Assembly (NCBI GenBank): GCA_964518765.1
Contig: CAZFJC010000001.1
Span: 11,595-75,594 of the forward strand
DNA from: an uncultured bacterium
GTDB taxonomy: Bacteria > Edwardsbacteria > AC1 > EtOH8
Length of the DNA stretch: 64,000 bases
Reading direction: 5' to 3'
The notes below the pieces were generated by a model. The model was not told the origin of the DNA, ran no database searches, and saw only the letters and a list, made by a program, of their open reading frames with translations. The position numbers were made by a program, and so were the translations under genes. Position 1 is the first letter of the stretch. Every line of letters begins with the position of its first letter. This document shows positions 2,777 to 64,000 of this stretch, piece by piece.

Positions 2777-4060
2777 ATGAAGATAGAATCGGTTATCAGG
2801 GGATCGTCCGCCGACAGGGCCGGCCTGAGGCCGGGGGACCGCATCCTGTCTATCAACGGCCACCCGGTAAAGGACGAGATAGATCTGCGCTTCCATACCT
2901 CGGACGAGCTGCTTGATTTTATCGTCGAGAGGTCGGGGAGGGTGCGAAGCTTTCGTGCCTTACGCAGGCCGGGGCGGCCGTTGGGGATGGTGCCCGAGGC
3001 CTGGCGGGTCCGACGCTGCGGCAACCGCTGCCTTTTTTGCTTCGTGGACCAGATGCCCAAGGGGTTCAGGCCATCGCTCTACGTCAAGGACGAGGACTAT
3101 CGGCTTTCCTTCCTTCACGGGAACTACCTGACCCTGACCGGCTTCTCCGGCGCCGACCGCGCGCGGGTGATCGCACAGAGGCTCAGCCCGCTCTACGTCT
3201 CTGTCCACGCCTCGGATGAAAAGGTGAGGGGGAGGCTTCTGGGGGCCGGGCGCCCGGTGCCGATCATGCCGCTGTTGAGCGATCTGGTCAGGCACGGGAT
3301 CGAGCTGCATACTCAAATCGTCCTCTGTCCGGGGATCAACGACGGCAAGGTTCTGGATAAAACCATCTGTGACCTGGTCGCCCTGCACCCTGGCGTGGCC
3401 AGCATCGCGGTGGTCCCGGTCGGGCTGACCAGCCACCGTCTCGGACTGCCTAGGCTCGATCCTGTCAGCGGGAGATTGGCCAGGCAAATCATTGTTAAAT
3501 ATAAACCAATCCAGAAGAAGTTAAGGGAGAAGTTCAACAGAACGATACTTTATTTTTCGGATGAATTCTACCTCCTAGCCAGCCTTGACATACCTAATTC
3601 CATTTGGTATGATGATTACCCACAGATCGAGAACGGTGTCGGCATGAGCAGGCTTTTTATTGACAGTATCGAAGAAAGTTCTTTAAATTTGCCTTCCAAG
3701 CTTGCAAGCCCCAAAAAAATAGCCTTGGTGACCGGGATGCTGGCTAAACCTCTACTTGAACCTCTCGTTAAAAAATTCTTGGGTATAAAAAAATTAGAGG
3801 TACGCTTGATTGCCGTGGAAAACCGGCTTTTTGGTTCCAGCATCACGGTCAGCGGCCTGTTGTCCGGCAGGGACATTCTGAACGTCTTGTCCCGGGAGTC
3901 CGGATTAGACCTGGTGGCGTTGCCTGAGAATGTGGCCAACGCCGAGGGCATATTTATAGAGGGGATGACCGTTAGAAGATTCAGAACGATGGTGGCGCCA
4001 ACCAGGGTTGTTTTCGGCCTAGAAGGTCTGGTTAAAAGGATCGCTTCATGGGCCGGATAA
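2777..4060 (+). CDS. PDZ plus DUF512 domain protein (radical-SAM-like CxxxCxFC motif).
   Basis: N-terminal PDZ (IRGSSADRAGLRPGDRILSINGHPV); CGNRCLFCFVDQ motif; DUF512-like remainder. The 3' part (about 3480-3850) is markedly AT-richer than the rest of the gene. Confidence 0.65.
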   Translation: MKIESVIRGSSADRAGLRPGDRILSINGHPVKDEIDLRFHTSDELLDFIVERSGRVRSFRALRRPGRPLGMVPEAWRVRRCGNRCLFCFVDQMPKGFRPSLYVKDEDYRLSFLHGNYLTLTGFSGADRARVIAQRLSPLYVSVHASDEKVRGRLLGAGRPVPIMPLLSDLVRHGIELHTQIVLCPGINDGKVLDKTICDLVALHPGVASIAVVPVGLTSHRLGLPRLDPVSGRLARQIIVKYKPIQKKLREKFNRTILYFSDEFYLLASLDIPNSIWYDDYPQIENGVGMSRLFIDSIEESSLNLPSKLASPKKIALVTGMLAKPLLEPLVKKFLGIKKLEVRLIAVENRLFGSSITVSGLLSGRDILNVLSRESGLDLVALPENVANAEGIFIEGMTVRRFRTMVAPTRVVFGLEGLVKRIASWAG

Positions 4061-10156: not shown

Positions 10157-10235
10157 CGGGGCGTAGCGCAGTCCGGTTTAGCGCACTTGACTGGGGGTCA
10201 AGGGGTCGGTGGTTCGAATCCACTCGCCCCGACCA
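10157..10235 (+). tRNA. tRNA-Pro (anticodon GGG), CCA encoded.
   Basis: Manual fold: acceptor CGGGGCG/CGCCCCG, D-arm GCGC/GCGC, anticodon stem CTTGA/TCAAG with loop CTGGGGG (anticodon GGG), T-arm GGTGG-TTCGAAT-CCACT, discriminator A, then CCA. Confidence 0.85.
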
Positions 10236-22514: not shown

Positions 22515-23112
22515 TATCAACCAGGCGGTGGAGCTGTTCAAATCCCGTGATCCGCGGAAAAGACGCTGGGCGGTGGAGCTAGCCGCCGATCTGGGGACCC
22601 AGGAGGCAGCGGCCCTGTTGGTCAAGGCCCTTCAGGATCAAAGCTGGAGCCTGCGGGAGTATGCCATCGTCCAGTCGGCCAAACTAGGGAAACCCATGGT
22701 AGCCCCTCTGTGCCGCCTGCTGAGCTCAGGGGTATGGTTCTCACGGGCGGCGGCGGTCCAAGCCCTCAAGGCCATAGGGGATCCAACAGCCCTGGGGCCG
22801 CTGTGTCGGGTGGCTTTTGATACCAACCGCAGCGTCTCCCAGTCCGCCAGAGCAGCTGCCGGCGATATTCTGCTCGGCCTCGATGCCCAGAAGGTGCTGG
22901 CCGCCGCCGCCTTCATGGACAGGGAGCAACGGAAGGGCCTGGTAGAAATACTGAAAAATAGAGACCCCGATTTGGGACGATCGCTATCTAACCTGGAGAG
23001 CGAGGGCGTCGGGAGGGAGGGCGAGAACGATCCCGAGGTCCTGCAGAGGCTCCGTGCCGCCCTCAAGGCGGCGGCCAAGCAGGAGCCGAAAGACGAAGAT
23101 GAGGAGCCCTGA
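22501..23112 (+). CDS. HEAT-repeat (PBS-lyase-like) protein.
   Basis: Repeating helical LxxALxD...VRxxAxxALxxIGDP units; acidic, K/E-rich tail. Confidence 0.5.
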   Translation: MPEGDINQAVELFKSRDPRKRRWAVELAADLGTQEAAALLVKALQDQSWSLREYAIVQSAKLGKPMVAPLCRLLSSGVWFSRAAAVQALKAIGDPTALGPLCRVAFDTNRSVSQSARAAAGDILLGLDAQKVLAAAAFMDREQRKGLVEILKNRDPDLGRSLSNLESEGVGREGENDPEVLQRLRAALKAAAKQEPKDEDEEP

Positions 23113-24202
23113 GGAATCATTCTGGTGGCTGAGGCTGCTATCGGTGCCCGGCGTCGGCCCGGTGCGCTATCGGGCGCTGCTGTCACTTTTCGGAGGGCCG
23201 GAGCAGGTTTTCCAGACCCCAGCCAAAGAGCTTTGCCGGGCCGATCTGGTGGACGCCAAAACGGCCGGGGCCATCATCGGCCATCGTGATGAATCCTGGG
23301 CCCGGAACCAGGTGGAGGCCATGGCCAAAGCAGGCGCCAGCCTCCTGACCATTGACCAGCCAGATTATCCCGCCATGCTCAAGAAAACAGACGATGCTCC
23401 ACCGCTGCTTTTCGTCTGTGGAAAAGCGGACCTTAATGCCCAACCGGCGGTGGCCGTGGTCGGCTCGCGGCTGGCCACCCAGTATGGCAAGGCCACGGCC
23501 GAACTTTTGGGAAGGGAGCTCTCCTTGGCTGGGTTCCTGGTGGTCAGCGGCATGGCCCGCGGCATAGACAGCGCTGCTCACCGGGGGGCGTTGCAGGCCG
23601 GGGCCCCGACCGTAGCTGTGCTGGGGTGCGGGGTGGACGTGGTCTATCCGCCGGAGAACCGCAAGCTGCGAGACCGGATAGCCGAGTGCGGGGCGGTAAT
23701 CTCGGAGTACCCCATGGGCCAGGGCCCCATGGCCGGCCATTTTCCCAACCGCAACCGGATCATCACCGGGATGTCGTTGGGGGTGGTGGCGGTGGAGGCC
23801 CGGGCCGACAGCGGGGTTTTCTCCTCGGTGCGCTGGGCGGCCGATCAGGGGAGGGAGGTGTTCGCCGTGCCCGGCCCCATCAGCTCGGCGGCTAGCTCGG
23901 GCACCAACCGGCTCATCAAGCATGGGGCCAAATTGGTTCAAGGGGTGGGAGACATTATCGAGGAGCTGCAACCGCAGCTGGCCGGGATGGTCGGCGTTAA
24001 GAAGGCCGGCGGCTCGGTTTCCTTGGTCGGCAACGAGGGGCTGGTTTACGGCCAGCTCTCCGACCAGCCCTTACACGTCGACAGCCTGGCCCAAGGGTCC
24101 GGCCAAAGCGTGGCCGAGGTGTTGCGGACTCTGTTCGATCTGGAGATACGGGGGCTGGTTAAGCAGCTGCCGGGAAAGATGTATGTGAGGGTGCAAACAT
24201 GA
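23099..24202 (+). CDS. dprA: DNA-processing protein DprA (Smf).
   Basis: VVGSR ... GMARGIDSAAHRGAL ... VAVLGCGVD ... FPNRNRIITG. The ATG at 23099 overlaps the upstream stop. Confidence 0.85.
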   Translation: MRSPEESFWWLRLLSVPGVGPVRYRALLSLFGGPEQVFQTPAKELCRADLVDAKTAGAIIGHRDESWARNQVEAMAKAGASLLTIDQPDYPAMLKKTDDAPPLLFVCGKADLNAQPAVAVVGSRLATQYGKATAELLGRELSLAGFLVVSGMARGIDSAAHRGALQAGAPTVAVLGCGVDVVYPPENRKLRDRIAECGAVISEYPMGQGPMAGHFPNRNRIITGMSLGVVAVEARADSGVFSSVRWAADQGREVFAVPGPISSAASSGTNRLIKHGAKLVQGVGDIIEELQPQLAGMVGVKKAGGSVSLVGNEGLVYGQLSDQPLHVDSLAQGSGQSVAEVLRTLFDLEIRGLVKQLPGKMYVRVQT

Positions 24203-24388
24203 TGATCTGTTTACAGATTGCGGCGGCAATAGCATATGTTATCGTGATGCAGCCAGATGTTCAAGCGGGCATAAACAAGTATTCAAACAAACAATATCCT
24301 GATAGTTTGTACAGGGTAACTGAAAAGCAATATACACTTGACTCGATTTCAATAAAAATCATCCAAGTATAACCAAAAAAGGGAAAAT

Positions 24389-24424
24389 ATGCAACCGTAC
24401 CACATATTTGTCGCGCATGGATAA
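24389..24424 (+). CDS. 11-codon upstream ORF (MQPYHIFVAHG) translationally coupled to the low-GC gene.
   Basis: AAGGGA RBS 5 nt upstream; its stop TAA overlaps the downstream ATG as TAATG. Confidence 0.3.
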   Translation: MQPYHIFVAHG

Positions 24425-24969
24425 TGTTAGAGAAAAAAGGCAGGAATATACACACGAAATATTTCGATGATATAGATGCTGTCGGTTATAAATATGGGAT
24501 ATTCGTGCCAAGGGAACAACCCATAAATAATCATTTTCTTATCGTTAAAATCGGCGATTATGACGGACGCCTATTTATTATTGATAAGCGTGGCAATATT
24601 GATGATTTTCCTGGCGGACGGTTCTTTATTACCGATGACAAAAGATATTTGGTCACAGAACATAGTTCCGATTCAGATGACACCCTCACTGTTATAAAGT
24701 TATCTGATGGTGCGAAATATTTTTTAGTTGAGCTGCAACGATGTATCTGGCAATGGTACCGAAATGACGGTAAATATTTTTACACTTTGGCTTCATCTAA
24801 AGACGCCACAAAACGATGGCATGAGATATCTGACACAGTGTGTCTGCTAGATTTTAAAAACCGATGTTTATACCAAAGCCCTTCCTTATTGGCTAATGAT
24901 AAAAATAGTGTAAAAGTGCAATATTACTTTGATTTCAATGATTTAAAAGATTGTGAGTGTGAAAGGTAA
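24424..24969 (+). CDS. Orphan hypothetical protein (181 aa) encoded in a low-GC island (about 35% GC against about 62% in the flanks).
   Basis: Complete ORF with AT-rich codon usage. No signal peptide and no recognisable motif; Cys pair at the C-terminus (DCECER). Confidence 0.5.
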   Translation: MLEKKGRNIHTKYFDDIDAVGYKYGIFVPREQPINNHFLIVKIGDYDGRLFIIDKRGNIDDFPGGRFFITDDKRYLVTEHSSDSDDTLTVIKLSDGAKYFLVELQRCIWQWYRNDGKYFYTLASSKDATKRWHEISDTVCLLDFKNRCLYQSPSLLANDKNSVKVQYYFDFNDLKDCECER

Positions 24970-24971
24970 AA

Positions 24972-26084
24972 ATGGCCAAGGTCTCAATAATCAATTGTAA
25001 GACATACGAACCTGCGGAAGTAATAGCGGCAGTCAACCAAAGCATAAATATACTTGGCGGCATGTCCGCCTTCATCCGGCCCGGGCAGAAAGCGCTTCTC
25101 AAGCCCAACCTGCTCTCCGCCAAGAAACCCGAGGAGGCCATCACCACCCATCCGGCGGTCCTGGAGGCGGCCATCGTCCTGGTCAAGGAGGCAGGGGGCG
25201 TGCCGGTGGTGGGCGATAGCCCGGGCGGCAAGATATCGGACCTTCGGACCTACTGGGAGGCCACCGGCACCGCCGAGGCCTGCCGCCGGCAAGGGGCGGA
25301 GCTGGTCAGCTTCGAGAAATCTGGCGTTTACGAGAAAAGGATCGGCAACCGGAAGTATTACATCGCACGGCCGGTGCTGGACGCAGACGTTATCATCAAC
25401 ATCCCCAAGCTCAAGACCCACAGCCTGACGGTGCTCACCTGCACCGTCAAGAACATGTTCGGCGTCGTGCCCGGCATCCGCAAGTCCATGCACCACCGGG
25501 AGGCTCCCAAGCCGCGCGAGTTCTCCGGCCTGGTGGTCGATATCTTTTCGCTGGCCAGGCCCCACCTGAACATAGTCGACGCCATAGTCGGCATGGACGG
25601 GCCCGGGCCCTCGGCCGGCGATCCCAAGCAGCTGGGCTTCATCATGGCCGGGGCCGATGGGGTGGCGGTGGATGCCGCCGCCTCCCATCTGCTGGATTTG
25701 GATCCCTTTAAGGTCCCTACCACCCAGATCGCGCACCGGAGGGATCTGGGCGAAGGCGACATAAAAAGGATCGAATTGCTGGGCGAGGTGCCGCAGGTCA
25801 GAAAGGACTTCCGCTGGCCACCCTCGTGGATGTACCACCTGGTGCCGGGCGCGCTGGCCAAGGCCGGAGCCAGGCTCTTTTGGATAAGGCCGGAGATCGA
25901 TAGGCAGAAATGCGTCAACTGCGGGGCCTGCGTGGAGAGCTGTCCGGTAAGCGCTCTATCGCCTGCCGTAGGGGCGCCGGTCTTCAACTACCGGCTGTGC
26001 ATCAACTGTCTCTGCTGCCAGGAGATCTGCCCGGCCCACGCCATATCCCAGCGCAAGAGCCTGCTGGCCAGGCTGCTGAGATGA
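24972..26084 (+). CDS. DUF362-family protein with a C-terminal 2x[4Fe-4S] ferredoxin domain.
   Basis: C-terminal CVNCGACVESCP ... CINCLCCQEICP. Confidence 0.65.
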   Translation: MAKVSIINCKTYEPAEVIAAVNQSINILGGMSAFIRPGQKALLKPNLLSAKKPEEAITTHPAVLEAAIVLVKEAGGVPVVGDSPGGKISDLRTYWEATGTAEACRRQGAELVSFEKSGVYEKRIGNRKYYIARPVLDADVIINIPKLKTHSLTVLTCTVKNMFGVVPGIRKSMHHREAPKPREFSGLVVDIFSLARPHLNIVDAIVGMDGPGPSAGDPKQLGFIMAGADGVAVDAAASHLLDLDPFKVPTTQIAHRRDLGEGDIKRIELLGEVPQVRKDFRWPPSWMYHLVPGALAKAGARLFWIRPEIDRQKCVNCGACVESCPVSALSPAVGAPVFNYRLCINCLCCQEICPAHAISQRKSLLARLLR

Positions 26085-27088: not shown

Positions 27089-28798
27089 ATGCGCAAAGTA
27101 GAGGACAAGATCAACCGGGCGCTGGGCAGGGAGCCGGTGGACCTGCTGTTGAAGAACGCCCAACTGGTCAACGTCATCTCGGGTGAGATATACAAAACGA
27201 ACCTGGCGGCGGTCGACGGGCGGATCGTAGGCTTCGGGGAATACGAGAGCCACCGGACGGTGGACTTAGAGGGATCCTACCTGGCCCCCAGCTTCATCGA
27301 CGGCCACATCCACATCGAGAGCTCGATGCTGACGGTGACCGAGTTCGCCCGGGCGGTGGTGCCGCTGGGGACCGGGGCGGTCATCGCCGACCCCCACGAG
27401 TTCGCCAACGTCCTGGGCATGGACGGCATCCGCTACGTGCTGGAGGAGCGCGAGGGACTGCCCCTGGACGTCTTTGTGATGCTGCCCTCGTGCGTGCCGG
27501 CCACCGACCTGGAGACCAGCGGCGCCCGGCTTTCGGCCTACGACCTCCACCTGCTGGTCAGCGAGCCGAGGGTGGTGGGGGTGGGAGAGATGATGAACTA
27601 CCCCGGGGTGCTTTTCGCCGACAAGGACATCCTCAATAAGCTCCACGTGGGCCGGGACAAGCAGATCGACGGCCACGCCCCGGGCCTGACCGGCAAGGCC
27701 CTCAACGCCTATGTTCTGGCCGGTCCGCGCTCCGACCACGAGTGCATCGGTCTGGAGGAGGCCAGGGAGAAGCTGAGGCTGGGGATGCACATCCACCTGC
27801 GCCAGGGATCGTCGGAGAAGAACATGGCCGCCCTGCTGCCGCTGATCAACCCGCAGAACTCCCGCAACTTCAGCTTCGTCACCGATGACCGGCACCCGGC
27901 CTCGCTCATCAGCGAGGGGCACATCGACAACAACGTCCGGATCGCCATCGCCGCCGGGGTGGACCCGGTGACCGCCATCCAGATCGCCACCATCAACACC
28001 GCCCGCTTCTACCGCCTTAAGAACGTGGGGGCCCTGCTGCCGCGCTACTGGGCGGATATGGTGGTCTTCGACGACCTGCACGACGTCAGGCCGCGGATGG
28101 TCTTCAAAAAGGGCGAGCTGGTGGCCCAGGACGGCAAGGCCCTGTTTCAGGCGCAGGACATCGACCATACCTACATCCGGGGCACCATGAACGTCCAGTG
28201 GCTTTATGAGTCCACCTTCGCCGTGCCGGCCAAAGGCGAGCGGATAAGGATCATGCAGATGGTTCCCGGCCAGATCGTCACCCGGCATATCAGCGATCAG
28301 GCCAAGGTGGTGGACGGCCTGGCTGTGTCCGACACCGAGCGGGATATCATCAAGTTTGCCGTCATCGAGCGGCATCGGGCGGCCAAGAACGTGGGGCTGG
28401 GTTTCGTCCGCGGCTTTGGCATCAAGCGAGGGGCACTCGCCTCCTCGGTGGCTCACGATAGCCACAACCTGGGGGTGCTGGGGGCCAACGACGCCGACAT
28501 GCTTAAGGCCGCCATCAGGGTGATCGAGATGGGCGGGGGGCAGGCGGTGGTGGCCGACGGCCAGGTGCTGGCCGAGCTGGCCCTGCCGGTGGCCGGCCTG
28601 GTGAGCGACCAGAACCTGGAACACGTATCGCAAAGGGTGAGGGAGCTGAACCAAGCGGCCAAAGACGTGGGCTGCATACTGCCGGACCCGTTCGCGGCCT
28701 TAAGCTTTCTACCTTTGGTGCCCATTCCCGAGCTCAGGCTGACCGATAAAGGTTTGGTTGATGCCAAGGAATTTAAGCTTATTGACTTATTTTATTAA
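27089..28798 (+). CDS. ade: Adenine deaminase.
   Basis: SFIDGHIHIESSML ... amidohydrolase metal-binding motifs; length about 570 aa. Confidence 0.8.
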   Translation: MRKVEDKINRALGREPVDLLLKNAQLVNVISGEIYKTNLAAVDGRIVGFGEYESHRTVDLEGSYLAPSFIDGHIHIESSMLTVTEFARAVVPLGTGAVIADPHEFANVLGMDGIRYVLEEREGLPLDVFVMLPSCVPATDLETSGARLSAYDLHLLVSEPRVVGVGEMMNYPGVLFADKDILNKLHVGRDKQIDGHAPGLTGKALNAYVLAGPRSDHECIGLEEAREKLRLGMHIHLRQGSSEKNMAALLPLINPQNSRNFSFVTDDRHPASLISEGHIDNNVRIAIAAGVDPVTAIQIATINTARFYRLKNVGALLPRYWADMVVFDDLHDVRPRMVFKKGELVAQDGKALFQAQDIDHTYIRGTMNVQWLYESTFAVPAKGERIRIMQMVPGQIVTRHISDQAKVVDGLAVSDTERDIIKFAVIERHRAAKNVGLGFVRGFGIKRGALASSVAHDSHNLGVLGANDADMLKAAIRVIEMGGGQAVVADGQVLAELALPVAGLVSDQNLEHVSQRVRELNQAAKDVGCILPDPFAALSFLPLVPIPELRLTDKGLVDAKEFKLIDLFY

Positions 28799-28861
28799 TT
28801 TCTTAATTATCAAAGTATTATAATATATCATAAAACCATTGCTTTAAATAAATTATAGCTA

Positions 28862-30385
28862 ATGAAAAGCATTAAAATAAGCTTTTACCTTAATGATCAT
28901 GCCGTAACCTATCAGATCGAGCCCGGACAGACGGCCCTGGACCTGATCAGGAACGGTTTGGGTCTCACCGGGACCAAGGAGGGGTGTTCCGAAGGCGATT
29001 GCGGAGCCTGCACCGTGGCCCTGGGAACCATGGAGAATGGGCGGCTGGCCTACCGGGCGGTTGCCTCCTGCATTCTGCCGGCAGCCAAGCTGCATGGCCG
29101 ACATGTCATAACCATCGAGGGATTGGCCCGAGGTGATAAACTGCACCCCATCCAGCAGGCGGTGCTGGAGGAGCACGCCACCCAGTGCGGGTTCTGCACG
29201 CCGGGGATCGTCATGTCTCTCTTCTGCCTCTTCGCCGGGAATACCAGACCAACGGTCGAGGAGCTGAACGCCTCGCTGGAGGGAAACCTCTGCCGGTGCA
29301 CTGGGTACGACTCCATCAGGAAGGCGGCGCTGCGAGTCTCCGATAATTTGGCAAATAAGCTTCTCTCATGCAGCAGGGATATACTGCCTACCTATATAAA
29401 AATGGTAGAAAGGGGGTTAAAGAAAGCAGGCGAGTGCCAAGCGAATGGGTCGGAGACGGCCGATAGGGCAGGGATTTCGGAGTACCATCAGCCTGAGACG
29501 CTACCCCAGCTGTTCGCCGTATTGAGGAAATTCAGGTCCTGCAATCAGTACCGGCTAATCTCCGGCGGCACCGATGTCATGGTAGATCGAAACATAAAGA
29601 AGATCTATCCGGAGCACTTGGTCGACATCTCCGGCATTCAGTCTCTAAGAGGCATTAAGGTGGCCGGCAAGGCCATGTCCATCGGCGCCAACGTCACCCT
29701 TTCGAAGCTGGTTGAGAGCCCGGTGGTCAGGCGTCGGCTTCCGGTCCTGGCCCAAACAGTCGCGCAGATGGCCTCGGCCCAGATACGCAATACCGCCACC
29801 CTGGCCGGCAATCTGGCCAACGCCTCGCCCATCGCCGACGGCAGCGTCCTGATGCTGGCCCTGGGGGCCAGGCTGAAACTGGTATCGCCCAGGGGCTCCC
29901 GGACCGTGTCCATCGACGATTTCTATAAATCCTACCGCCATACCTGCCTGGGGGAGCGCGAGATTATTGCTAGGATCGAGGTGCCCATGGACGGCTCATT
30001 GTGCAGCTTCATCAAGAGCGCCAAGCGCAGGTCGGTGGACATCTCCACGGTAAACTCGGCCGTCAAGCTGAAATTATCAAAGGGTCGGATAACTGAAACC
30101 CGCATCGCCCTGGGCGGCGTTGCCCCGACGCCGGTGTTGGCTCTGAAGGCCGCGGCCAGCCTGGCCGGCAAGGGGTTGACAGAGGAAACGATCGTCAGGA
30201 CCGCCGACATGGCCGCCTCCGAATGCACGCCCATCAGCGACGTCCGCGGCGGGGCGGATTACAGAAAGATGCTGGTGAGGAACCACGTGCTCAGGCATCT
30301 GAGAAGCATAGCGTTGAACCTAACCCCAAATCCCGCTGCCTCGAGGGAAGGGGAAGCCAGGGTTAGATCGGGGGAAAACAGATGA
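28862..30385 (+). CDS. Molybdenum hydroxylase small/medium subunit fusion: [2Fe-2S] ferredoxin domain plus FAD-binding (CoxM/XdhA-like) domain.
   Basis: CSEGDCGACTV ... QCGFCTPG ... CRCTGY iron-sulfur motifs, then GGTD FAD-binding and a CO-dehydrogenase-flavoprotein-like C-terminus. Confidence 0.8.
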   Translation: MKSIKISFYLNDHAVTYQIEPGQTALDLIRNGLGLTGTKEGCSEGDCGACTVALGTMENGRLAYRAVASCILPAAKLHGRHVITIEGLARGDKLHPIQQAVLEEHATQCGFCTPGIVMSLFCLFAGNTRPTVEELNASLEGNLCRCTGYDSIRKAALRVSDNLANKLLSCSRDILPTYIKMVERGLKKAGECQANGSETADRAGISEYHQPETLPQLFAVLRKFRSCNQYRLISGGTDVMVDRNIKKIYPEHLVDISGIQSLRGIKVAGKAMSIGANVTLSKLVESPVVRRRLPVLAQTVAQMASAQIRNTATLAGNLANASPIADGSVLMLALGARLKLVSPRGSRTVSIDDFYKSYRHTCLGEREIIARIEVPMDGSLCSFIKSAKRRSVDISTVNSAVKLKLSKGRITETRIALGGVAPTPVLALKAAASLAGKGLTEETIVRTADMAASECTPISDVRGGADYRKMLVRNHVLRHLRSIALNLTPNPAASREGEARVRSGENR

Positions 30386-60533: not shown

Positions 60534-62295
60534 GCCCATCCTGTTGGCCGCCCTTCAGGCGGCAGCTTTCAGCAGCCTGGCTCCAGCCCTGGGGTTCGAG
60601 GGAAACGTTCATTACGGCTCATGGCGACTGAGGCGGGAGTTGGGAGTCGATAAAAAATTCGTGTCGAAGCCTGAGAGCCTGGCGGCGGGGATGGAGAGGC
60701 TGACCGCCTTCTACCGCCGAAACGGCTTTATCGACGCCAGGATCGAGTTCTTCAGGGGCGGACATGGCCAAGACGCCGAGAGCCTTAAGATACTGATAAC
60801 CGAAGGTCCGCGCTATACCGTGGGCAGCTTGTCCTTCAAAGGGAACGACAGCCTTGGGCCTACCCTGCTGGCCAAGGGGCTGTCCAACCAAACGGGCAGG
60901 CCCTATAACCCGGACGCCGTCGGGTCCGACGAGTTCAAGCTGCTGATGGCCTACGCCGATCGCGGCTACGTCTTCGCCGGCGCTGAGGCCCAGGTGGAGC
61001 TGATGCCGGACACCACCGCAGCTCTGACCTTCTCCATCAGCGAAGGGAGGCGGGTTAGGGTGGGAGCAGTTTCGGTGAGGGGAAACTCCTTCTCCGCCGG
61101 GGAGGCGCTCATCCGAAGGGTGGGGATCAGGGCTGGAGATTTTTTCAGCCGAAGGGCCATGCTTGACGGAGAGCTGGCCCTGGCGGGCACCGGCCTGTTT
61201 AGTGAGTCAAGGGTCCAGCCCGGGGCGGTCAGCCACGACAGCACGACCATCGAGGTGGAAATAACGGTGGCGGAAAGGCCCCGGAGGCGGTTAGAGACTG
61301 GTTTGGGATACGGCAGCGGCGACGCCTTCAGGGTGATGGCCCGCTGGCTCAACCGCAACGTCGACGGCTGGGGACAGCGACTGGAGATAAGCGGTTTGGC
61401 AGCCGTCCAGCTTTGGCGGGACATCAGGCTGGTCCGGGGGCGGGCCCAGGTGTCATATCAAGAACCATGGCTTTTCCGCCGTGACCTGCCGGCCAAGGCC
61501 GCCGTCTACTATGACGACCACCGCCCTCCCTATACTGACTACCGTTTACAGACGGTAGGTATAGACCTGGACATATACCAGCGGCTGGGGCTTGACAACT
61601 ACCTTGACTGGCGGGCCAGCCAGCAGTGGCTGAGGCTATCGCCCAACTGGCGCGACCCGGAGATCCCGTCGGACACTATCAGGTACCATGGGCGTCGAAG
61701 CGTCTCCACCGGGTGGTTTCTGAACCGCCTGGACGATCCATTGTCCCCTCGAAATGGATATACAGCCCAATTGGCGCTTGAGTACACCGGGGGCTTTTTC
61801 GGAGGCGTCAGCACCTATCAAAGGATCAATGTAAATCTGACAGGATACGCCACCCTGGCCAAGCCCCGCACCACACTGGCCTTCAGGGCCAGGGGAGGTA
61901 TCATCGGAGACTGGGAGAAAAGGCACCTGGTGCCGTACTACGAAAGATATTTTCTGGGCGGGCCGACCACCCTGAGAGGGTATTCCAGCGGCAAGGCCGG
62001 CAGGCTTTCGGTGACAGGGGAGCCGCTGGGCGGCAAGAAGATGATGCTGGCCAATGTCGAGCTAAGGCCGACCATATACCGCCGGTGGGCGGCTAGCTTG
62101 TTCCTGGATGTGGGCATCCTGTCCGATAGTCCGTTGAGGAAAATGTCGTTGAGCGAGGCCTACACCAGCCCGGGGCTGGGGCTCAGGTACGTGCTTCCCA
62201 TGGGGACGGGAAGGCTGGACATAGCCTCGACGGGCACGAGTATGGAACAGATAAAAGAATGGAAGGTTATATTGGCTTGGGGTGAGATCTTTTAA
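60514..62295 (+). CDS. Omp85/BamA-family outer-membrane protein with POTRA-like N-terminal region.
   Basis: Signal peptide (ILLAALQAAAFSSLA); POTRA-like repeats; C-terminal barrel with TLRGYSS ... ANVELRP ... terminal GEIF (C-terminal aromatic). The start overlaps the upstream gene by 20 nt. Confidence 0.7.
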   Translation: MDWRRVKPILLAALQAAAFSSLAPALGFEGNVHYGSWRLRRELGVDKKFVSKPESLAAGMERLTAFYRRNGFIDARIEFFRGGHGQDAESLKILITEGPRYTVGSLSFKGNDSLGPTLLAKGLSNQTGRPYNPDAVGSDEFKLLMAYADRGYVFAGAEAQVELMPDTTAALTFSISEGRRVRVGAVSVRGNSFSAGEALIRRVGIRAGDFFSRRAMLDGELALAGTGLFSESRVQPGAVSHDSTTIEVEITVAERPRRRLETGLGYGSGDAFRVMARWLNRNVDGWGQRLEISGLAAVQLWRDIRLVRGRAQVSYQEPWLFRRDLPAKAAVYYDDHRPPYTDYRLQTVGIDLDIYQRLGLDNYLDWRASQQWLRLSPNWRDPEIPSDTIRYHGRRSVSTGWFLNRLDDPLSPRNGYTAQLALEYTGGFFGGVSTYQRINVNLTGYATLAKPRTTLAFRARGGIIGDWEKRHLVPYYERYFLGGPTTLRGYSSGKAGRLSVTGEPLGGKKMMLANVELRPTIYRRWAASLFLDVGILSDSPLRKMSLSEAYTSPGLGLRYVLPMGTGRLDIASTGTSMEQIKEWKVILAWGEIF

Positions 62296-62460
62296 AGACA
62301 CACTATTCGTTTTTTGCAGGTGTATGGAAAAAAATGCACCTATTTTTATTTATTCACAACATACCAAAGGAATGTATGTTGTAATGCAAGAAGTTAGAAT
62401 TCATTATTTTGGCATAGAATATGCTTAGTGTATTTTTAAACTTATATAAAGGATTAGATT

Positions 62461-64000
62461 ATGAAAAAATTGTTTTACATCCTATTGTTTTCTTTGATGG
62501 CGGGTGTTGCTTTGGGACAGACAATATTGGATAGCTATACAGATGGTAACTTCACGGCGAATCCAACGTGGTCAGGCGATGCATCAAACTGGACAATAGT
62601 AACCTCAAGCGATGTCGCGGCGGGTGCGTCAAATTCCAATACGCTTCGCCTTTCGGCACCAAAAGTTATTCAATACGATTATCTCTCAACACAGATAGCC
62701 AATTGGGGCAGCAGTCAAGAATGGGGGTTCTTTCTTGGGAGAAGGGCGCAAGCTTATACGGCAGCGAATAAGGTATTTATCTGGCTTTATGCAAACGATG
62801 CCAACTTAGAATCTTCAACAGTAGACGGTTATCAAATCGTGATAGGTGATGATTCGGGCAACGATGAAATACTCGTTCAGAGCGTCACAAATGGCGTTGG
62901 CACAACTTTCTTAACTTCGGCGAATTCGATACCGAATGGTCTTACGGATATTGGAATACTGATTAGAGTGACTCGTAGTTCAAGCGGTTTGTGGGAGCTA
63001 TTTACTTCAACTTTGCCAACCGTAAACGGCACCGGGGCCATAGCTTCAATGATACCAAACGCTTCAAATGCTTCAATAAGTCAAGGAACGGCGACAAATA
63101 CGACATATACTCCATCAGCCAATGGTTTTTTTGGGATTGTTGCATATCATAGCACCGGTGACAATGCGATAGCGACCGTAGAATTAGATCAAGTCTATTT
63201 CACCATCCCTGGAACCCCATCAATTAATCTGACCCCTTCATCCATGGATTATGATACCCTTTTGTTAAATGACACGCTGGAATCAAGCTATGTTGTCTCC
63301 GGCGACAACCTGACCGCCGGGATCACGGTCACCGCGCCGTCCTCCGAGTTCAAGGTCTCACTGACCAGCGGCTCGGGGTATTCCAACTCTGTGACCATCC
63401 CCCTGCAAGGGGATTCAGTCCCACCAACCAATGTTTACGCCATCATGGTCCCGACCAGCGAAGGCACAAAGTCCGGCAACATTACCAATGCCAGCGCCGG
63501 TGCCGCCACCCAGAACGTGGCCGTCAGCGGCTACGGGACAAAGATACACCTGCTAAGCAACCTTGCCAGCTTTGGCGGGGTGGAGGTAGGACAGACGTCG
63601 GCAGAGCAGTACTATCGTTTGGCTGCCTCAGGGTTAGGGCCAGAAAGCAATCTTTCGGTGACTGCTCCCTTGCAATATCTTGTATCCCTGACTTCAGGAT
63701 CCGGATATTCGTCGAGTTGCAACATAAGGGCCGATGAGAATGGAAGGATTTTAGAAGATACAGTTTTCGTGCGTTTCTCTCCCTCCAGCACCGGCACCAA
63801 GTTCGACAGCATCAGCCATGTAAGTTCGGGCGCCATCACACGGTACCAGAGGGTGTACGGCCGGGGCGTGGACAGCGAGCCGACCGTCCAGGCCAGCAAC
63901 ATTAACTTCAGCAATATAAACACCTACGACATGAGGGTCAGCTGGAACCGCGGCAACGGGGCCGGATGCGTGGTGGTGGCCCGATGCGAGAACCCGGTGG
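62461..64000 (+). CDS. Secreted surface protein, 3' partial (runs off the window). It is absent from the ORF track because it has no stop in the window.
   Basis: Manual translation: MKKLFYILLFSLMAGVALGQ signal peptide, then a Ser/Thr/Asn-rich beta-type sequence ending in a ...DMRVSWNRGNGAGCVVVARCE FN3-like motif. AAAGGA RBS; the 5' part is AT-rich. Confidence 0.55.
   Translation, partial: MKKLFYILLFSLMAGVALGQTILDSYTDGNFTANPTWSGDASNWTIVTSSDVAAGASNSNTLRLSAPKVIQYDYLSTQIANWGSSQEWGFFLGRRAQAYTAANKVFIWLYANDANLESSTVDGYQIVIGDDSGNDEILVQSVTNGVGTTFLTSANSIPNGLTDIGILIRVTRSSSGLWELFTSTLPTVNGTGAIASMIPNASNASISQGTATNTTYTPSANGFFGIVAYHSTGDNAIATVELDQVYFTIPGTPSINLTPSSMDYDTLLLNDTLESSYVVSGDNLTAGITVTAPSSEFKVSLTSGSGYSNSVTIPLQGDSVPPTNVYAIMVPTSEGTKSGNITNASAGAATQNVAVSGYGTKIHLLSNLASFGGVEVGQTSAEQYYRLAASGLGPESNLSVTAPLQYLVSLTSGSGYSSSCNIRADENGRILEDTVFVRFSPSSTGTKFDSISHVSSGAITRYQRVYGRGVDSEPTVQASNINFSNINTYDMRVSWNRGNGAGCVVVARCENPV

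Follow-up and report, generated by a model that had tools for sequence, protein, structure and literature searches.

Between dprA and a gene for a DUF362 protein, a 64,000-nucleotide stretch of contig CAZFJC010000001.1 (the window), from an uncultured bacterium of the Edwardsbacteria lineage, contains an AT-rich tract annotated with a 181-codon open reading frame (ORF). Comparison with homologous proteins identifies this ORF as the tail of a longer gene cut by one nonsense codon, the part that a gene caller recovers downstream of the stop. Our favoured reading, to which we assign a probability of roughly 0.78, is that the tract holds a recently inactivated AT-rich accessory gene in a slot between dprA and DUF362 whose contents are exchanged by recombination. 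The finding is in this sense an ordinary one: a disrupted accessory gene mis-annotated as an ORF of 181 amino acids (aa) with a spurious upstream ORF (uORF).

One reading frame with one internal stop

The original prediction placed a single ORF in this region. A second, 57-codon ORF (24199-24372) was found to share its frame with the 181-codon ORF (24424-24969), and the TAA at 24370-24372 is the sole stop between the two. The ATG of the 57-codon ORF overlaps the stop codon of dprA (ATGATG) and lies downstream of a GAGGG within the final codons of dprA. The merged query of 256 aa, joined across the TAA, matched three metagenomic proteins of 243, 255 and 281 aa (P0002-P0004) with E-values of 1e-38 to 3e-33 and with 82-98% of the query covered; these alignments continue through the TAA and through the region of the proposed uORF. 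The TAA is spanned in 121 of the 152 BLASTP alignments to the merged protein. Of 58 family sequences, 39 have Lys and 11 have Arg in the stop column (Lys/Arg in 50/58), and the closest homologue, carried by the related genome L009, has AAA at this site, so that the lesion amounts to one base, AAA to TAA. Only the window has methionine at the start position of the 181-aa ORF; the family column otherwise holds E, N, T, S, K or D, and the corresponding codon of L009 is CGA (Arg).

Members of the family have an uninterrupted frame of ~240-280 codons, and the window copy, with TAA at codon 58, is a disrupted member. No second lesion was seen in the merged frame beyond this codon. The 57 codons upstream of it are conserved relative to L009 at least as well as the remainder (~13 of 25 aligned residues, counted by eye, against 42% overall). 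Because no other lesion is present and the upstream part is as conserved as the rest, the nonsense change appears to be recent, which points to a fresh pseudogene or a strain variant. The gene resembles nonsense pseudogenes that are mis-annotated as short ORFs, with one in-frame stop, homology on both sides and a gene caller that restarts at the next Met. It differs from them in showing no further decay, so that it may have become a pseudogene very recently, represent a variant allele or contain an error.

The same 181-aa product appears in the deposited annotation (P0001) as a 'hypothetical protein', which the corrected gene model turns into the tail of a ~256-codon gene. Alignment onto the structural model of the family (see below) places the signal peptide, β-strands 1 and 2, part of strand 3 and the Cys of a conserved CRAW motif outside this product. 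If made, it would be cytoplasmic and, with three strands and one conserved Cys missing, probably non-functional.

Alternatively, the gene could be intact (~256 aa) and the TAA an error of sequencing or assembly, or else a minority allele that became fixed in the consensus of a metagenome-assembled genome (MAG). The sequence does come from a MAG, the single lesion is one base away from a conserved AAA, and the upstream 57 codons have kept their conservation, all of which this explanation would accommodate. However, substitution errors are uncommon in consensus assemblies and the deposited annotation has the same truncated product; we consider an intact gene improbable.

The 11-codon ORF lies over conserved codons

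The original prediction took the 181-aa ORF as an independent gene controlled by termination-reinitiation from an 11-codon leader peptide, MQPYHIFVAHG. The letters described are present: AAGGGA stands 4 nt ahead of the ATG of the 11-codon ORF, and the stop of this ORF overlaps the next ATG in TAATG at 24421-24426. The independent gene and its leader did not hold up. In the longer frame AAGGGA is a Lys-Gly codon pair in a variable loop and TAATG belongs to Ile-Met, and both the Shine-Dalgarno-like site and the stop/start overlap are thus accounted for by sense codons. Instead of a non-coding leader, the 11-codon ORF covers conserved codons of the family frame. The motif C-R-A-W-I, invariant in the alignment with P0002-P0004, is encoded at 24409-24423 (CRAW at 24409-24420), upstream of the annotated ATG and underneath the 11-codon ORF. 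Neither the uORF nor the start overlap is conserved in orthologues: L009, which carries the closest homologue, has no equivalent of the 11-codon ORF and no TAATG, and the family column lacks the start Met.

The arrangement is like stop/start translational coupling and leader uORFs in its TAATG, and genuine overlaps of neighbouring genes do occur in the same operon, as in the relatives L004 and L097, where the stop of a SIR2-like gene overlaps the DUF362 ATG (TAATG). It is unlike them in that the upstream ORF of the window sits inside a conserved coding frame and is itself not conserved. A functional 181-aa singleton on recently acquired DNA, reinitiated from such a leader, would also lack the signal peptide, roughly three of the strands and a Cys that is nearly invariant in the family, and all of the full-length relatives (119/119) have 230-300 aa. 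As far as homology across the TAA can tell, the leader model is largely refuted, and we regard it as very improbable. One false candidate for leader-peptide control is thereby removed.

Composition and extent of the AT-rich tract

The interval 24203-24971 has a GC content of 0.36, compared with 0.60 for the whole 64-kb window, 0.65 for dprA and 0.63 for the DUF362 gene. Its GC content at third codon positions (GC3) is 0.33, compared with 0.79 for dprA and 0.82 for the DUF362 gene. The deviation from the host genome expected of an island is therefore clear (GC 0.36 against 0.60, GC3 0.33 against ~0.80), and the interval is the GC minimum among all 770-bp intervals of the 64 kb (z = -5.5). The sharp drop in GC that had been noticed between the two genes was confirmed by both the scans and this rank. 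Low GC also stood for the proposed ~770-bp island, although its extent did not: the tract begins in the last dprA codons (~24191) and extends ~75 nt into DUF362 (to ~25046). These first 75 nt of DUF362 (24972-25046) have a GC content of 0.43, against 0.69 further on, and are divergent from all relatives.

The mobility signatures of an island (integrase, tRNA target, direct repeats) were absent. The ORF list of the window contains no recombinase or integrase, a repeat search gave no flanking direct, att-like or target-site repeats at the tract borders, and Rfam and tRNA scans were blank for the island and its surroundings. Rfam and ARAGORN detected a single RNA gene in the window, a tRNA-Pro (GGG) at 10157-10235, 14 kb away. 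Scanning 23800-25300 for promoters gave no sigma-70-like site, which fits expression by operon read-through. A role of the AT-rich tract as a promoter of DUF362 was considered and dropped, given the same scan and the fact that L007, L008 and L093 have no AT-rich tract at all.

A slot between dprA and DUF362 in related genomes

Searches with the DUF362 protein retrieved MAGs of the UBP2/'Candidatus Edwardsbacteria' type. The gene order rsmD-coaD-obg-HEAT-dprA-[slot]-DUF362-lpxL-like-adenine deaminase is conserved in a tightly packed operon. Two clades were drawn from DprA and DUF362 identities. Clade A consists of the window, L004, L007, L093, L094, L095 and L097, with DprA 75-87% identical within it; clade B consists of L008 and L009, whose DprA proteins share 75% identity. 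Across the two clades the DprA figure falls to 54-59%. In the window the low-GC tract, with its single gene of ~256 codons (24199-24969), fills precisely the point at which the dprA stop meets the DUF362 start in relatives with an empty slot. The slot holds different genes in different relatives (Table 1).

The comparison of syntenic regions downstream of dprA that had been suggested as a check shows the tract as an insertion relative to L093, L094, L007 and L095/L096; the family gene is absent at the locus in these closest relatives and also in L097 and L004. More distant relatives do have a same-site orthologue. L009 and L008 both carry family members in the slot, and the window and L009 copies are reciprocal best matches in the whole family (225 bits against at most 160). 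The L008 copy also matches the window and L009 copies best, narrowly. The window and L009 share their right junction, which reads ...D-C-E-C-E-R, TAA, two bases, ATGGC.

Table 1. Features of the AT-rich tract in the window and contents of the dprA|DUF362 slot in related genomes
Feature	Position or genome	Strand	Clade	Basis or remark
Whole low-GC tract (cassette and replaced 5' end of DUF362)	24191..25046			30-nt GC scan, breakpoint against L094, nucleotide identity to L093
N-terminal part (57 codons) of the ancestral gene of ~256 codons	24199..24369	+		Frame shared with the 181-codon ORF; aligns to homologues; hydrophobic start
Premature TAA, codon 58, in place of a conserved Lys/Arg	24370..24372	+		Family column; AAA in L009
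Other 198 codons and natural stop of the broken gene	24373..24969	+		Family alignments; profile match; CRAW, GDYDG and WY motifs, C-terminal Cys
Annotated 181-aa ORF (P0001), C-terminal fragment from the first in-frame Met past the TAA	24424..24969	+		Profile positions 74-254 only
11-codon ORF MQPYHIFVAHG, judged spurious	24390..24425	+		Out of frame over conserved codons YATVPHICRAWI
dprA	23054..24202	+		Pfam DNA_processg_A, E 1.6e-74
DUF362 and 4Fe-4S gene	24972..26084	+		Pfam DUF362, E 2.4e-55
Slot: interrupted family member	Window		A	GC 0.36
Slot: empty	L095, L096		A	GTGAATG, dprA stop abutting DUF362 start
Slot: DUF4126	L007 (5397-5996), L093 (1253-1846), L094 (3397-3996)		A	
Slot: DUF4126 and SIR2_2-like gene	L097 (2257-2922 and 2970-4001)		A	SIR2_2-like gene GC 0.27
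Slot: SIR2-like gene alone	L004 (4970-6001)		A	GC 0.29
Slot: DUF4126 and divergent family member	L008 (4685-5272 and 5286-5999)		B	Family member GC-rich (0.70)
Slot: intact family member	L009		B	GC 0.39 (GC3 0.39); flanks 0.63-0.68 (GC3 0.84)
Slot: none, dprA adjoins DUF362	L018, L019, L021, L022, L024		More distant	

The L008 family member (UBA2255) has neither CRAW nor the C-terminal Cys and is 30% identical to the L009 copy; it is either strongly diverged or of another allele lineage. The SIR2_2-like gene of L004 and L097 encodes 343 aa and matches Pfam SIR2_2 at 2.3e-5. It also gives a weak PADLOC SIR2 match (7.8e-6), which hints that the slot can hold defence-type genes. The membrane-protein gene DUF4126 is GC-rich, lies directly after dprA in five relatives of both clades, is 68.6% identical between the clades, and does not occur there in the window, L004, L009 or L095; it seems to be the older occupant of the slot. 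Elsewhere in L009 (4691-5116), a lone GNAT acetyltransferase gene with a GC content of 0.43 (GC3 0.45) stands among genes of GC 0.61-0.67 as a second single-gene AT-rich islet.

Boundaries and proposed exchange of the slot contents

The 3' ends of dprA from L093, L094 and L095 were compared with that of the window, and the left boundary was set against L094: homology ends after GTGAGGGT. The window dprA then continues with two extra, window-specific codons, CAA ACA (Gln-Thr), and a new TGA that overlaps the ATG of the cassette; codons and TGA are part of the inserted tract. The Shine-Dalgarno-like GAGGG in the last codons of dprA (GTGAGGG..., 24183-24201) lies 7 nt upstream of this ATG and is probably its ribosome-binding site. 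Judging from the 3' ends of L093-L097, the dprA GAGGG precedes whichever start comes next: that of DUF362 in L095, of DUF4126 in L094 and of the cassette gene in the window. The cassette gene would thus be expressed through operon read-through, with translation initiated from the GAGGG embedded in dprA.

On the right side, the DUF362 genes of the window and L093 are 0.47 identical over nt 1-75 and 0.91 identical over nt 151-300; the control pair L093-L094 gives 0.68. A similar pattern was observed for L097. Its DUF362 gene is 0.84-0.92 identical to that of its sister L093 over nt 151-1110, 0.63 over nt 76-150 and 0.43 over nt 1-75, and the first 150 nt are 0.83-0.84 identical between L097 and L004, both carriers of the SIR2-like gene. 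The mosaic identity of L097 indicates that cargo and DUF362 5' end travel as one block, with the crossover inside DUF362. By the same kind of evidence, related genomes appear to swap the contents of the slot by homologous recombination in the conserved flanks, with one crossover inside the DUF362 5' end and the other junction at the dprA stop. Recombination tracts at the slot would therefore extend into the adjoining core gene. A comparison of the first 30 residues of the window DUF362 with L009 and with its own clade was uninformative by eye, with 13/30 identical either way.

An abrupt change of composition within a MAG contig could also arise from an AT-rich piece of another organism mis-joined into the contig. 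Both junctions keep the reading frame, however: on the left, two codons are added to DprA before a stop that overlaps the following ATG, and on the right DUF362 is read on without a frameshift. L009, an independent assembly of a different organism, has the same architecture, and a chimeric assembly is barely credible.

The slot is comparable to hotspots and islets flanked by core genes. It occupies a fixed place between two conserved genes, its alternative contents are unrelated (none, DUF4126, SIR2-like or the β-protein family described here), its cargo is AT-rich, integrase, tRNA and border repeats are lacking, and one end of the recombination tract falls within a flanking core gene. The O-antigen loci, which lie between conserved flanks, are the textbook case of a hotspot that stays low in GC. 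The present slot differs from such systems in holding one gene with spacers of 0-2 nt within an operon, in cargo that uses a ribosome-binding site embedded in the upstream gene, and in that its recombination is deduced from mosaic identity. What is documented here is a compact, operon-embedded slot in a poorly known candidate lineage, in which unrelated AT-rich single genes replace one another. The locus is neither a classical mobile island, having no mobility signatures, nor a recognisable defence gene.

A broader proposal would be that the junction of the dprA stop and the DUF362 start is a dedicated single-gene slot in UBP2/Edwardsbacteria-like bacteria, where AT-rich cargo (secreted β-protein, SIR2-like) is repeatedly swapped together with nt 1-75 to 1-150 of DUF362, expressed via the ribosome-binding site of dprA, and kept at low GC for long periods in genomes of 60-68% GC. 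We think this unlikely as a whole. If true, it would describe an integron-less cassette exchange site that adjoins dprA, a transformation gene, and that carries a secreted protein family of novel structure.

A family of secreted-type proteins with a predicted all-β fold

The original prediction regarded the gene as an orphan, possibly a toxin/immunity or defence-related singleton. A profile search of 1.84 billion cluster representatives, clustered at 50% identity, disposes of the first point: the family comprises 344 clusters at E<=1e-3, of which 104 reach E<=1e-30, and almost all of its proteins have 230-300 aa. P0001 matches the profile with an E-value of 5.8e-88 over positions 74-254 only. 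The window protein is 46% identical to P0019 and 42-46% identical to its closest homologue in L009. Two cysteines are conserved, that of CRAW (54 of 60 sequences) and a C-terminal one (53 of 60), and the reading frame of the window has both. A hydrophobicity heuristic assigns a hydrophobic, signal-like N-terminus to 106 of 119 full-length members; the 57-codon part in the window has 11 hydrophobic residues out of 12 by the same measure, and the 181-aa ORF has no such segment. The window protein thus belongs to the family by its significant full-length profile match, its N-terminal signal-like segment and both cysteines.

As to the second point, neither the window protein nor any of 60 family members rose above noise in Pfam, NCBIfam or PADLOC scans, and the toxin/immunity or defence assignment therefore finds no match. 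A profile search of PDB sequences gave no E-value better than 0.1, and a scan of viral contigs with the patterns used found no family relative. The AlphaFold2 model of P0019, the closest homologue, built on a 60-sequence alignment, is all-β with 18 strands (predicted local distance difference test score 94.4, predicted template modelling (TM) score 0.90). Foldseek searches of PDB and BFVD returned only propeller-blade matches of low TM score (probability ~1.0, E ~1e-4, TM 0.3-0.4, root-mean-square deviation >7 Å). The model is like β-propellers (TolB, WD40, PD40-type blades) in being predicted all-β with repeated four-stranded blade-like units. It is unlike them in these low TM scores and large deviations, in the lack of a Pfam repeat match, and in its ~230 residues, too few for a closed propeller of 6-8 blades.

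According to alignments and model, the family consists of unannotated proteins of ~240-280 aa with a signal-like N-terminus, a predicted all-β fold of propeller-like blades and two conserved cysteines. As a working hypothesis from the model, we propose an extracytoplasmic binding protein containing a single disulfide; a periplasmic role of the immunity type is conceivable at most. The work thereby defines an unannotated family of putatively secreted proteins with at least 344 clusters, a confidently predicted all-β fold and no close solved relative.

Genes of the family are not generally linked to DUF362, and their neighbours in L001, L003 and L010-L012 are unrelated. Near the family member of L002, a fragment at 1500-1598 resembles by eye the C-terminus of a tyrosine recombinase (…HHDLKTTQVYLG…). 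Near that of L012, 3436-4083 gives a weak match to an IS200-type Y1_Tnp, accompanied by a DUF6602 gene.

Age and origin of the cassette

The tract had been described as recently acquired DNA. Its foreign composition and its absence in the nearest relatives agree with this description. L009 does not, since in this related genome the gene occupies the same slot and has a GC content of 0.39, precisely the observation that had been named in advance as speaking against recent acquisition. A similarly low-GC copy at the same site means that 'recent foreign acquisition' needs qualification. We favour the view that the cassette is part of an AT-rich pool of accessory genes shared by this lineage and is moved by homologous recombination, and is not a one-off import from an unrelated donor.

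The other way to account for L009 is an ancient vertical resident, an AT-rich gene present before the clades split, with low GC actively maintained and repeated losses in close relatives. L009, whose DprA is 56% and DUF362 62% identical to those of the window, shares the slot and a near-identical right junction; the reciprocal best match of the two copies, together with the GC-rich L008 copy in the same slot that matches both best, is as expected under this explanation, and an identity of 42% between the window and L009 copies is in line with evolution faster than that of the flanks, plausible for a fast-evolving secreted protein. Yet the window is nested among the non-carriers L093, L094, L007, L095, L097 and L004, which would require several independent losses, and the L008 and L009 copies are only 30% identical, with GC contents of 0.70 and 0.39, in genomes whose DprA is 75% identical. 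In a gene this old, synonymous sites would be saturated and a GC3 of 0.33-0.39 should already have reached equilibrium, unless selection holds GC low. GC3 is only slightly raised relative to GC1/GC2, by a rough regression-based estimate. On balance an ancient resident seems possible but rather unlikely.

Several points weigh against the reading of a recently inactivated accessory gene in an exchanged slot. The TAA, read from a MAG consensus, may reflect a mistake in the assembly or consensus, or an allele present in a minority; translation may reinitiate at 24424 after the premature TAA; and the signal peptides are those predicted by the hydrophobicity heuristic. Repeated loss in the relatives stands as an alternative to gain in the lineage of the window, and the searches found neither a donor nor a homologue closer than that of L009.

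Accessory genes are in general lower in GC than core genes (PMC5303225). A possible cause is AT-biased mutation that goes uncountered in genes often absent from recombination partners. The slot offers a case study of why accessory genes stay AT-rich in GC-rich genomes.

Other low-GC stretches of the window

The second-lowest GC stretch of the window lies at 62300-64000 (0.40 for 62241-63010) and consists of an AT-rich intergenic region followed by an ORF. This ORF starts at 62461, runs off the end of the window (at least 513 codons), has a clear signal peptide (MKKLFYILLFSLMAGVALGQ) and is rich in Ser, Thr and Asn; it is another low-GC gene for a secreted protein. At 3500-4000, GC falls to 0.46 in the C-terminal half of a 427-aa gene (2777-4060) whose N-terminal half has ~0.63, and this gene may be an intragenic mosaic. 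At 28600-29000, GC is ~0.40 across the end of the adenine deaminase gene (27089-28798), a spacer and the start of a xanthine-dehydrogenase-like gene (28862-30385).

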